Part shown: one piece after another, positions 47,760 to 51,385 of the stretch
How positions within the stretch are numbered: the first letter of the stretch is position 1
Layout of the letters: every line of letters starts with the position of its first letter
Assembly: GCF_057098645.1 (NCBI RefSeq)
Contig: NZ_CM169472.1
DNA: 64,000 nt
Direction: 5' to 3' (one strand)
The notes under the pieces: generated by a model
What the model saw: only the letters and a program-made list of their open reading frames with translations
Databases searched by the model: none
What the model was told of the DNA's origin: nothing
Program-made: the position numbers and the translations under genes

Positions 47760-48710
47760 ATGCTGAGCGCATTTCAACTGGAAAATAACCGACTGACCCG
47801 GCTGGAAGTCGAAGAGTCACAACCCCTTGTAAATGCAGTATGGATTGATCTTGTCGAACCGGACGACGACGAGCGACTGCGCGTACAATCTGAACTTGGC
47901 CAGAGCCTGGCAACCCGCCCGGAACTGGAAGACATCGAAGCATCGGCACGTTTCTTTGAAGACGACGACGGCCTGCATATTCACTCCTTCTTCTTCTTTG
48001 AAGATGCGGAAGATCACGCCGGTAACTCCACTGTGGCATTTACCATCCGTGATGGTCGTCTGTTTACTCTGCGTGAGCGTGAACTGCCCGCTTTTCGTCT
48101 GTATCGTATGCGTGCCCGTAGCCAGTCGATGGTAGACGGTAACGCCTACGAGTTGCTGCTGGATTTGTTCGAAACCAAAATCGAACAGTTGGCAGATGAA
48201 ATTGAAAATATCTATAGCGACCTGGAGCAATTGAGCCGGGTGATTATGGAAGGGCATCAGGGCGATGAGTACGACGAGGCGCTCTCCACTCTGGCGGAAC
48301 TGGAAGATATCGGCTGGAAAGTTCGCCTGTGTCTGATGGATACCCAGCGCGCTCTCAACTTCCTGGTACGTAAAGCACGCTTACCGGGTGGGCAACTGGA
48401 GCAGGCGCGTGAAATCCTGCGAGATATCGAATCCCTGCTGCCGCATAACGAATCCCTGTTCCAGAAGGTGAACTTCCTGATGCAGGCGGCAATGGGTTTT
48501 ATCAACATCGAGCAGAACCGCATCATCAAAATTTTCTCGGTGGTATCCGTCGTGTTCCTGCCGCCAACGCTGGTTGCTTCCAGCTACGGGATGAACTTTG
48601 AGTTTATGCCAGAACTGAAGTGGAGTTTCGGCTACCCAGGCGCGATTATCTTTATGATCCTCGCGGGCCTGGCACCGTATCTGTACTTTAAGCGGAAGAA
48701 CTGGTTGTAA
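47760..48710 (+). CDS. corA: magnesium/cobalt transport protein CorA
   Basis: 316-aa product [31 protein letters not shown]... ending ...[41 protein letters not shown] (GMN motif). Confidence 0.96.
48574..48710 (+). repeat. direct repeat copy 1: corA 3' terminus (about 94-95% identical to 50277-50413)
   Basis: base-by-base alignment of the two stretches shows the same length, no indels and a handful of substitutions. Confidence 0.85.
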
Positions 48711-48717
48711 TATGAGT

Positions 48718-48745
48718 GCCGGATAAAGCTATTTTTTTATCCGGC
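48718..48745. terminator. hairpin terminator after corA, shared with the convergent islet gene
   Basis: gccggataaa-gctatttt-tttatccggc followed by a T-rich tract. Confidence 0.7.
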
Positions 48746-48751
48746 TTATTT

Positions 48752-49243
48752 CTAAAAATTGTCTTTTTTAAAGTCATGCGGATTGAAAACTCGCTCTATT
48801 TTATTTTCTTGTGTTAATTGATACTCAGTAAAATCGTTAATACCAATATGAGTGTTACGATAAGGGTATTCATTAATAACCATTAAGTAATTTTTCACGA
48901 TGCAATTATCATTGCTCTTAATTGTCGGGAAACAGTAGAGATCTTCATACGGCCCTTCGATATATTTTTTATAGTCAGTGAAGCCATTACCGATATCAAT
49001 GACATACCAGATATGCCAACTACCTTCTGGTAGGGGATGTTGATTTTTAATTTCATTCTGATGCTTCAGATACCAATTTATTTTATCGCTGTCAGTCCAT
49101 GGCAGATGATCAACGACCAGAAAGACTGAATTGCCAGCATCAGAGTATGTATACAAAATCTGTACAGGACGCAATGTCCATAAATTATAGATACAGCATA
49201 GAAGAAATAAACATAATATAATTTTCTGGCGTTTGCTTTTCAT
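48752..49243 (-). CDS. hypothetical membrane-anchored protein (N-terminal TM helix, extracytoplasmic domain); candidate partner of the upstream gene
   Basis: 163-aa ORF MKSKRQKIILCLFLLCCIYNLWTL...; very AT-rich codon usage; starts 27 bp after the upstream gene's stop. Confidence 0.6.
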   Translation of the reverse strand: MKSKRQKIILCLFLLCCIYNLWTLRPVQILYTYSDAGNSVFLVVDHLPWTDSDKINWYLKHQNEIKNQHPLPEGSWHIWYVIDIGNGFTDYKKYIEGPYEDLYCFPTIKSNDNCIVKNYLMVINEYPYRNTHIGINDFTEYQLTQENKIERVFNPHDFKKDNF

Positions 49244-49270
49244 AGATAATTTTCGATTCTTTCGATAGTG

Positions 49271-50084
49271 TTAAAATTGGTGAAAAAAGGTTTGAAAGCA
49301 AAGCCTTTATGCCGTTGTAAAAAGAACCATATGCGAAAAAATCTATATTTGCTGTAAGTCTTGTTTTTGATATCAGTTACATCAAGACCGAAGTGGTCCT
49401 GTGCTACAAAATGAATTGTCGCACTCCACCCTATAGCGTATTTTTGAAAGCTTAAAAGAGATATTTTTTGAGCTGAAATATCATGAACACTGATTCCTAA
49501 GCCATTAAAACTGTCCTCGAAGTCATTAAATTTATTTAGTCTTGATGAAAGTAATTTGGTTTTAATGCTTTGCAGGATAAGAGGTTGGTATCCTGTCGAG
49601 GGAGTTGAATTAATGCCATTTTCGATACATTCTTTGATTATTCGTATTGGACTATTATAACCATATTTATTTTTTCATGAAAAGATAAATTTAATTGTTG
49701 GCTATGAAAATTGCTGCCATTTCCATATCTAAAATGTTCAATCAGATCTTCGATAAGTGTTTTATATTGTCCAAAAAAGGAAAAAATTTTTGCTAGTTCT
49801 TTCATTTCTGCAAATAAAATATCAGTGCATTCACGTTGTGATATTTTTGTTCCGGAACTTGAGGCACTAAAAGCAACATTAATAGAACCTGGGCCAGGGA
49901 AATGGTATTTAATAAGTCTGTAAGGATCAACTTTTGCTGAGATATCGCTTAGGCCGAGTGAGAGAAAATCTTGTTCTACCATATCACCATATTGCATATC
50001 ATCAGCAGAATAATCATCAAATAAACTAATAGTTTCGAAAAGTGTACAGGGAATATTAATTGATGGAAGTAATGTGTTATTCAT
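49271..50084 (-). pseudogene. hypothetical protein of about 270 aa interrupted by a -1 frameshift at an A6 run (148-aa N-terminal ORF plus about 125 in-frame codons lacking any start codon)
   Basis: ORF 49638-50084 ends ...SFHEKINMVIIVQYE*; the next frame stays open from the overlap catgAAAAAAtaaatatgg down to the stop at 49271 and contains no ATG/GTG/TTG. Confidence 0.6.
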
Positions 50085-50209
50085 TTACATTTTCCTTGGT
50101 TATATTTAAGCTCAATATCAATTTGAGAACAAATGCTAGGGTAAAAAAAATTTAAAAAAGAAGTACACTTCACATTTTTATTACATTCCGAAGGGAATCT
50201 CGTTATTGA

Positions 50210-50413
50210 TTGGTTTTGCCCATTGTTAATAACAATATGTTGAATTTACCGATTAGGAAACTTTTTCCTACGCGGATTGCCTCCAGCTATGGGATGAACT
50301 TTGAGTTTATGCCAGAACTGAAGTGGAGTTTCGGCTACCCTGGCGCGATTATCTTTATGATCCTCGCGGGCCTGGCACCGCATCTGTACTTTAAGCGTAA
50401 GAACTGGCTGTAA
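50210..50413 (+). pseudogene. displaced corA 3' fragment (last ~46 codons, [11 protein letters not shown] end); not an independent gene
   Basis: 67-aa ORF whose C-terminal 45 residues equal the CorA C-terminus with one Y to H change; no corA N-terminal region upstream. Confidence 0.8.
50277..50413 (+). repeat. direct repeat copy 2 of the corA 3' terminus
   Basis: offset of exactly 1703 bp from copy 1. Confidence 0.85.
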
Positions 50414-50419
50414 CTATAC

Positions 50420-50462
50420 GATGTCGCTGTGAGTAAGTTAGTGTGCTGACAGCGACATTTTA
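50420..50462. terminator. hairpin terminator after the displaced corA 3' end, shared with the convergent DUF805 gene
   Basis: gatgtcgctgt...acagcgacat inverted repeat followed by tttag. Confidence 0.6.
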
Positions 50463-50824
50463 GCCGAGGGAATCGCAGATAACATAATTGTTGTGAATAA
50501 TATCCATGCCACGTTGAGTTGGACGCTTAATGACTCACATCTCACCCCTTCAATTGCTGCAGAGATAATAGAAAAAAGTGTTAAACCCAATGAAATCAAT
50601 ACAAAGTAGATTGCCTTACATCCAGTATCTCTTATTCTTTTTGCTCCAATATTGATATTTACATAGGTATTATTAATAACCAGAATAAAACTCAAAGCCA
50701 GGTTGATATCATTCAAAGTTATTAATATTGACCATGATGTTAATGTATAGATTATGAACTGAAAGCGTGATAAACGCTCAAGCCTGGATGGGTAGAATAT
50801 ATTTCTGATGGATGATTTGAACAT
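50438..50824 (-). CDS. DUF805-family small inner-membrane protein (yigF-like position)
   Basis: 128-aa ORF with 3-4 TM segments and a KRIRDTG motif resembling the DUF805 RRxHD signature; AT-rich. Confidence 0.6.
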   Translation of the reverse strand: MFKSSIRNIFYPSRLERLSRFQFIIYTLTSWSILITLNDINLALSFILVINNTYVNINIGAKRIRDTGCKAIYFVLISLGLTLFSIISAAIEGVRCESLSVQLNVAWILFTTIMLSAIPSAKMSLSAH

Positions 50825-50883
50825 TTTTTACATTGTTTTATATATATAATTGTTTTGAATATATATTACCTGAATTATGTGGT

Positions 50884-50901
50884 TTGCATATATATATGCA
50901 A
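50884..50901. promoter_or_regulatory. perfect 18-bp palindrome in the AT-rich divergent promoter region
   Basis: TTGCATATATATATGCAA reads identically on both strands. Confidence 0.5.
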
Positions 50902-51063
50902 TATAGCAGTCTTTGCATTGATAACTACACAGTAGTAATTTAGAGTGTGTAAGTTTTTATTGATAGGGTATATTTTAATTAAATATAATTGGAATGTATT
51001 TTTATTCTATAAACAATATATTGGGTGAATGGATTCTATATGGGAAATGGTAACTTTTGGTAG

Positions 51064-51339
51064 TTGTTCTTGGGTAAAGAACCTTACAGCAAAAAATCTG
51101 ATTTTGTTAAGGCATGGTTATTGTGGTGGGCTATTACCATCCTTGTTCTATTTATTTTAAGCCTGACTACGACATTAAATTTAAGAAGTATAGGTATAGG
51201 GTTAAGTTTTGGGTTTTGTCAAATCCTTGGTAGATATACGATGTCTCTAGGATGGAGTAAGTACTGGGGAGTTTTGGGGGTATTTCCTGTAACAAATATT
51301 GTTCTTTTTCTTATCTTAATTTTTTTCAAAAAAAGATAA
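51064..51339 (+). CDS. small hydrophobic inner-membrane protein (yigG-like position), TTG start
   Basis: 91-aa ORF with two or three TM segments, convergent with rarD and sharing a hairpin. Confidence 0.5.
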   Translation: MFLGKEPYSKKSDFVKAWLLWWAITILVLFILSLTTTLNLRSIGIGLSFGFCQILGRYTMSLGWSKYWGVLGVFPVTNIVLFLILIFFKKR

Positions 51340-51348
51340 ATAAGTCAG

Positions 51349-51376
51349 TGGGTAGGCTCTTTAAACGGCCTACCCA
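51349..51376. terminator. bidirectional hairpin between the small membrane gene and rarD
   Basis: gggtaggc-tctttaaacg-gcctaccc. Confidence 0.65.
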
Positions 51377-51385
51377 TGTTAATTC

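Follow-up and report, generated by a model that had tools for sequence, protein, structure and literature searches.

A DUF943 gene beside a broken DUF3289 gene

The stretch of DNA considered here (the window: 64,000 nucleotides of contig NZ_CM169472.1, NCBI RefSeq assembly GCF_057098645.1) belongs to a chromosome of Escherichia coli, in the setting uvrD-yigE-corA...rarD-yigI-pldA-recQ. Between corA, which stops at 48710, and rarD lie some 2.7 kb of DNA whose GC fraction, 0.29-0.39 over ~48.7-51.3 kb, compares with 0.48-0.59 on either side, an AT-rich islet, as an earlier reading made from the letters alone (the sequence-only reading) had said. At its left end, on the minus strand, sits an intact gene of the DUF943 family (PF06092; 48752..49243), preceded on the same strand by a broken gene of the DUF3289/YPO3983 family (49240..50084). 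The 163-aa DUF943 protein is very probably the one that provides immunity in an antibacterial effector-immunity cassette formed by two genes, DUF3289 and DUF943. Systems of this kind have already been published; what is of modest interest locally is that the gene is orphaned, that its partner bears a recurrent deletion, that the DUF943 fold matches BtpiA, the immunity chain of a solved complex, and that the architecture comprises a duplication of corA. RefSeq names the pair 'YPO3983/DUF3289 family protein' and 'DUF943 family protein', and no mention of YPO3983, TIGR03034, PF11692 or PF06092 was found in the literature searched.

The DUF943 open reading frame (ORF) is uninterrupted, with the motifs INWYLKHQ and SWHIWYVIDIGNGFTDYKKY, and its product matches the Pfam family with 93.9 bits (cutoff 25) over 150 of the 151 model positions. 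Because of this score, of the 122 family representatives that an exhaustive search retrieved, and of a dN/dS of 0.13-0.22 between divergent E. coli alleles, which denotes purifying selection, it has to be considered as a real gene and not as a chance ORF. As read from the letters, the protein appears to be membrane-anchored: hydropathy reveals a sole hydrophobic segment, at residues ~8-26, preceded by the basic N-terminus MKSKRQK, and no second segment of the 163-aa protein above the transmembrane (TM) threshold. In an AlphaFold (AF2) model residues 2-23 form a single helix, followed by a compact alpha/beta domain that would be periplasmic according to the positive-inside rule. The 136 aa past the anchor make up the anticipated tryptophan- and tyrosine-rich domain (4 W, 12 Y, 7 F) and contain two cysteines. 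This Cys104/Cys114 pair is invariant and compatible with a disulfide in the oxidising periplasm, which it probably forms.

Upstream, the remains of the effector gene were delineated by translating three frames and comparing them with WP_001066389.1, the intact protein of 282 aa. The N-terminal fragment in the window matches PF11692 (DUF3289) with 127.9 bits, while the intact allele matches TIGR03034 with 438 bits (cutoff 156) and is spanned from end to end by the DUF3289 model. Over 1.8 kb, the sole difference between the window and L001, the locus of E. coli O145:NM FWSEC0002 where the effector is intact, is a 4-bp deletion at 49663..49664, of TATT after 49663 on the plus strand (AATA on the coding strand), which brings a two-unit tandem repeat down to one. 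From the effector start 148 aa remain translatable (49638..50084, minus strand), 140 of them native and 8 out of frame, devoid of the toxin core. The C-terminal 142 codons, with the core DHFGLD...FRIWFFLQ...KPF, persist in another frame that lacks a start codon, and no ORF of at least 40 aa beginning with a start codon was found on the same strand over the C-terminal half of the effector. The window copy is a pseudogene whose conserved C-terminal core is not in an intact frame; the sequence-only reading had rightly described this upstream neighbour as frameshifted.

It had also placed the start of the DUF943 gene 27 bp after the stop of the frameshifted gene, and this has to be corrected: 27 bp is the distance from the DUF943 start to the nearest stop in the frame of DUF943 itself. 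In its authentic frame, the C-terminal part of the upstream gene runs to a TGA, and this stop overlaps with the ATG of DUF943 by 4 nt (ATGA, 49240..49243, minus strand), a stop/start junction of the translational-coupling kind that is annotated as such in intact genomes and is found again in distant homologues. In the frameshifted allele the effector frame actually stops 394 nt before DUF943 begins. The effector gene has a Shine-Dalgarno sequence, AAGGA, within the upstream region of the two-gene operon (50085..50266, minus strand), with an anti-Shine-Dalgarno duplex energy of -5.4 kcal/mol, whereas DUF943 has none of its own, the corresponding energy (-0.9 kcal/mol) being at background level.

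Linkage, decay and exchange in the two families

The sequence-only reading had proposed to look for co-occurrence of the two genes across genomes and for a context of type VI secretion system (T6SS) genes at other loci, and both are found. Scanning one genome per species with the effector alignment yielded 28 loci from at least a dozen genera of Enterobacterales; wherever downstream sequence was present (26 of 26 DUF3289 loci), a DUF943 ORF comes next downstream on the same strand, with an overlap or a gap of no more than ~16 bp. Conversely, DUF3289 or a fragment of it lies directly upstream of six of seven distant DUF943 genes (23-37% identity), usually with a 4-nt overlap, the seventh sitting on a 1.1-kb contig. 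The T6SS context is provided by PAAR-DUF3289 fusions, which in Klebsiella make up the gene upstream of DUF943. As a pair, the two genes are carried by 2633 (48.5%) of 5426 complete E. coli genomes, at 88-99.8% identity; K-12 lacks the pair, its corA being followed by yigF-yigG.

Intact DUF943 genes next to broken DUF3289 genes are met repeatedly, at eight loci besides the window (L005, L025, L026, L031, L032, L034, L039 and L051), and decayed effectors with an intact DUF943 partner are seen in Salmonella, Atlantibacter, Huaxiibacter, Trabulsiella, metagenomes and other E. coli. Extra DUF943 genes, in arrays, are present in Trabulsiella and Lelliottia (L011, L012, L026). Arrays and decayed effectors make up the pattern expected of immunity genes, and they are hard to square with DUF943 being a toxin. 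The arrays consist of three to four DUF943 genes in tandem, some split by DUF3289 fragments (L011 5750-7644, L012 6417-8021, L026 8837-12547), and look like orphan-immunity islands.

Exchange between alleles adds a further element. At the locus of E. coli GMF065 (L036, 1501-2837) the effector is recombinant: its N-terminal ~200 aa are of the type of L037, while its C-terminal ~80 aa, from residue ~205, are of the window type and were inherited together with a DUF943 gene of the window type. As far as a single case read from sequence can go, this supports the C-terminal core as the part that DUF943 would recognise. Synonymous divergence of the pair amounts to 0.21-0.44, compared with 0.10-0.16 for corA, and the CorA protein is identical in all strains compared.

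The deletion that inactivated the effector is not private to the window. RefSeq flags the deleted allele as 'frameshifted' in other strains, and the same 4-bp deletion is present in at least six complete genomes. It is found (L035, L053, L054, L055) on at least three islet haplotypes, with four different DUF943 protein alleles, and the window haplotype is, deletion apart, identical to the undeleted L001; this suggests recurrent slippage at the (AATA)2 repeat or short-patch gene conversion. Strain AHB7 displays another, different frameshift in its effector. That the repeat acts as a slippage hot spot, repeatedly converting E. coli lineages from armed-and-immune to immune-only, is a bolder proposition and a rather improbable one.

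Homologous systems and competing explanations

Family membership, intact or broken gene states, synteny, purifying selection and fold matches come from the present analysis; toxicity, rescue and T6SS-dependent delivery come from the literature on homologues. A PAAR-DUF3289 protein of Yersinia pseudotuberculosis, when directed to the periplasm, is toxic to E. coli, with rounding of the cells, and the cognate downstream DUF943 protein (TM 7-26, the rest periplasmic) rescues them; a colicin M-like attack on the cell wall, at lipid II, was proposed, the similarity being termed striking for the Yersinia protein (PMC11148199). A standalone DUF3289 protein of Aeromonas belongs to the T6SS-dependent secretome and kills prey devoid of the pair (PMC12135965). 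In a genomic survey of Klebsiella, DUF3289 and DUF943 were linked 780 times, and the literature reports DUF3289 elsewhere as fused to a PAAR or PIX delivery domain, or as adjoining VgrG.

The Yersinia pair, T6EC1/T6IC1 of strain IP32881 (PMC11148199), resembles that of E. coli in its two Pfam families, their order and strand, and in the size and topology of the immunity protein, a likeness of families and topology and not one drawn from pairwise sequence alignment. It differs in that T6EC1 is a PAAR fusion within a T6SS operon, with periplasmic toxicity and rescue demonstrated, whereas the E. coli effector is a standalone protein of 282 aa, encoded in an orphan islet between corA and rarD, and is a pseudogene in the window. 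The orphan effector of Aeromonas jandaei comes closer in its organization, as a standalone DUF3289 followed by a gene for a small membrane immunity protein, but that protein, of 95 aa with a signal peptide and three TM helices, is unlike DUF943 (PMC12135965). Colicin M and PaeM share with the system the proposed mode of action, periplasmic attack on lipid II and rounding; colicin receptor-binding and translocation domains are absent from the E. coli effector. The immunity logic is also similar, the colicin M immunity protein Cmi being a small periplasmic protein held at the inner membrane by an N-terminal anchor. A Cmi-like fold for DUF943 was considered and discarded, as the colicin M immunity protein is absent among the structure matches listed.

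Structural comparison leads to a more remote relative. For the intact E. coli effector, the AF2 model (pLDDT 75.8) has a single significant match in the PDB, 9jdi_A, the C-terminal domain (CTD) of the T6SS effector BtpeA of Bacteroides fragilis (Foldseek E 4e-9). The depositors entered this chain as a 'DUF3289 family protein'; a profile of the E. coli type matches it at E 5e-6, through the motif DHFGLD...FRxWFxLQ...KPF that both proteins share. The predicted fold of DUF943, for its part, matches BtpiA, the immunity chain of the 9jdi complex, so that the two partners map onto distinct proteins within a single solved effector-immunity complex. The BtpeA CTD-BtpiA system (PDB 9jdi, 9jg8), which has the C-terminal motif and fold of DUF3289 in its effector domain, comes from a different phylum, with only 10-16% identity; BtpeA is a protein of 608 aa (9jg8_B), and it is described as having a PAAR tip at its N terminus and as dependent on the adaptor BtapC.

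From these homologues the following scenario can be proposed. In the intact allele the two genes would form one operon, translationally coupled through the ATGA. The 282-aa DUF3289 protein would be synthesised in the cytoplasm and then delivered into Gram-negative neighbours, most likely by a T6SS, and would be toxic in their periplasm, possibly by the colicin M-like attack on lipid II put forward for its homologue. By this analogy the upstream product, which the sequence-only reading had seen as a cytoplasmic protein, would instead be a secreted effector acting in the periplasm of its target. DUF943, held in the inner membrane by the N-terminal helix and exposing a disulfide-stabilised domain to the periplasm, would bind and block the C-terminal toxin core of the effector, protecting the producer and its kin. 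In the window the 4-bp slippage deletion has destroyed the effector and left DUF943 as a probable orphan immunity gene: the strain is no longer able to attack with its DUF3289 toxin and, provided that DUF943 is still expressed, would keep its protection against those E. coli strains that have the pair, about half of them.

If so, the annotation would be settled: the 'DUF943 family protein' would be an immunity gene, and the broken gene next to it, of the 'YPO3983 family', a former T6SS toxin. Present in about half of complete E. coli genomes and in several alleles, the pair is likely to be a widespread factor in competition between strains in the gut, a role that would extend to O157 and O145 pathogens. 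Strains that kept the antidote and lost the weapon would be resistant non-aggressors. What the case offers is an annotation that is correct and, for the family, an E. coli model that is inexpensive and open to test.

To be sure, several observations weigh against this interpretation. The colicin M motif, DxYD(x5)HR, is not obvious in the E. coli effector sequence. PaeM (4g76), which is colicin M-like, comes second in rank for the effector model, with a weak match (E 0.32, probability 0.28, TM-score 0.27), and colicin M homology, not confirmed for the E. coli effector, is kept here as a literature proposal only. The DUF943 sequence profile does not match BtpiA, the relationship being one of fold, and for the E. 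coli proteins themselves the argument proceeds by analogy with experiments made on homologues. The E. coli pair is an orphan, flanked by corA and rarD, devoid of PAAR, VgrG, Hcp or a recognised delivery domain, and the standalone pairs of other genera likewise lie among housekeeping genes; T6SS dependence in E. coli is therefore an extrapolation. The Aeromonas DUF3289 toxin is countered by the three-helix protein mentioned above (PMC12135965), and DUF943 is not the only immunity solution for a DUF3289 toxin. A 2021 preprint found Aeromonas DUF943 toxic on overexpression in E. coli, and cytoplasmic DUF3289 non-toxic (10.1101/2021.10.07.463556). Finally, as coupling is lost and a Shine-Dalgarno sequence is wanting, the DUF943 gene of the window may be poorly expressed in this strain.

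This last point opens the way to the most serious competitor, namely that the window DUF943 gene is a silent relic, intact because effector loss is recent, unexpressed and without current function. We consider this unlikely, yet deserving real attention. The window haplotype, equal to L001 apart from the deletion, speaks for a recent loss, and the upstream frame, stopping 394 nt short, has removed coupling from a gene that lacks its own Shine-Dalgarno sequence. There is also no convincing internal promoter: the search for a promoter of the operon or of DUF943 returned 6 promoter-like matches in the region, with 8.6 expected from shuffled sequences, and no promoter-like site was found on the minus strand in 50085..50266. 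By contrast, intact DUF943 genes are common beside effectors that decayed earlier, reduced to fragments of 61-73 aa or carrying internal deletions (L005, L014/15, L031, L034, L041), and DUF943-only arrays persist, which argues that selection maintains orphan copies in an expressible state. The relic view, moreover, concerns present-day activity only, and not the identity of the gene.

One of the promoter-like sites calls for comment. The pair TTTTCA-18 nt-TATAAT (49654-49683, minus strand, 10/12 matches) lies across the deletion site and is directed at DUF943, and its spacer, of 22 nt in intact alleles, becomes the canonical 18 nt after the deletion. This sigma-70-like site may be a chance occurrence, as promoter-like matches in the AT-rich region do not exceed those in shuffled sequences. 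Were it active, a single mutation would at once disable the toxin and supply the orphan immunity gene with a promoter.

Another possibility is a toxin-immunity system independent of the T6SS, for instance a bacteriocin that resembles colicin M and is released in another way. This is improbable, even though it would suit the standalone pairs lying among housekeeping genes, in E. coli unlinked to T6SS genes, and the weak likeness of the effector fold to PaeM. The islet is present in 48.5% of complete E. coli genomes and the one tssC type probed in 41.7%, marginal counts that, with three overlapping strains, do not establish a general overlap; E. coli, however, has several types of T6SS, and islet-bearing O157:H7 strains do possess a T6SS cluster. 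The effector consists entirely of DUF3289, with no colicin-type receptor-binding or translocation domain, and the islet has no lysis gene. Elsewhere DUF3289 recurs fused to PAAR or PIX, or beside VgrG, and even the standalone Aeromonas protein is delivered in a T6SS-dependent manner (PMC12135965).

It is still less likely that the roles are reversed, with DUF943 as the toxic or delivered component and DUF3289 as a T6SS adaptor or chaperone. Overexpressed membrane-anchored proteins are often toxic for unspecific reasons, which counts against such a reversal. The idea draws on the 2021 preprint (10.1101/2021.10.07.463556), where Aeromonas DUF943 was strongly toxic, cytoplasmic DUF3289 was not, and the copy number of DUF943 was variable. 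Yet in the peer-reviewed version by the same group it is periplasmic DUF3289 that is toxic and DUF943 that rescues (PMC11148199), and the protein secreted by Aeromonas is DUF3289 (PMC12135965). In 9jdi, too, the DUF3289 domain is the effector and the DUF943-like fold the immunity chain, while arrays of partnerless DUF943 genes, and DUF943 genes that stay intact next to a dead DUF3289, agree with orphan immunity and not with unguarded toxins.

Where the sequence-only reading wavered between an orphan toxin-immunity module and abortive infection, the former is upheld by the two families and their published homologues, while an abortive-infection or other anti-phage module, reminiscent as it is of a small two-gene cassette in an AT-rich, variable islet at a hot-spot-like slot, was rejected as barely credible, neither protein having a match in PADLOC or PHROGs scans, plasmid and phage searches having hit only chromosome-sized or megaplasmid records (essentially no carriage on phages or true plasmids), and family-level experiments and structures all pointing to interbacterial antagonism.

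The corA-rarD slot

The way the islet entered the chromosome may have left a visible scar. The 3' end of corA is present twice, once within intact corA (48564..48710, plus strand; 147 bp, 141/147 identical to K-12) and once as a corA' remnant made of the last 48 codons and the stop (50267..50413, plus strand; a partial CorA pseudogene in RefSeq), forming direct repeats of 147 bp, 93.9% identical, on both sides of the pair. This suggests Campbell-type integration of a circular piece through the 3' end of corA, a view that fits the arrangement of strain LR-28 (L054), where the remnant is followed by a K-12-type yigF-yigG, and that of Atlantibacter (L009), which has a similar flanking corA duplicate. 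Other E. coli have the pair between corA and rarD without the remnant, and Salmonella arizonae and diarizonae carry it in the same slot. The corA' remnant has its own downstream hairpin.

In E. coli the slot (48711-51385 in the window) takes at least four configurations (L003, L036-L039, L054): yigF-yigG, as in K-12; the pair with corA', a yigG-like gene and a hypothetical gene, as in the window, O157 and O145; the pair only, as in GMF065, 1517k, A13 and AHB7; and the pair with corA' and yigF-yigG, as in LR-28. It behaves as a variable hot spot of small size in which no integrase is present. The convergent corA and DUF943 genes have between them a GC-rich hairpin (48718..48745, plus strand), with an 11-bp stem followed by a T tract. 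It is the only terminator-like match in the region, a number not above chance expectation, and it probably serves as terminator for both genes, although the assignment is weak. At this same convergent junction there probably originates a gene-calling artefact of a JGI metagenome: P0018, of 216 aa, is named 'magnesium/cobalt transport protein CorA' and combines DUF943 and CorA Pfam matches in one product. Another protein retrieved with the family, P0240 (1010 aa, with five DUF943-like stretches), was set aside as a false positive, being a BACON-repeat surface protein.

Two further ORFs occupy the right part of the islet. The first (50438-50824, minus strand) encodes a 128-aa membrane protein that shares 29% identity with K-12 YigG (E 4e-5) and has a weak DUF805-like match; no gene is annotated at the equivalent place in the RefSeq records for L001, L002, L035, L053 and L055, and it may be a divergent, unannotated yigG-like gene. 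The second (51064-51339, plus strand) encodes a hydrophobic protein of 91 aa where the islet is at its most AT-rich and G-skewed; Pfam yielded nothing significant for it and PADLOC no match, and RefSeq lists it as a hypothetical protein (e.g. WP_077795543.1). The pair was also met at 97-98% protein identity to E. coli in two metagenome-assembled genomes labelled 'uncultured Alistipes sp.' (L007) and 'uncultured Clostridium sp.' (L008), which most likely contain mis-binned E. coli DNA.

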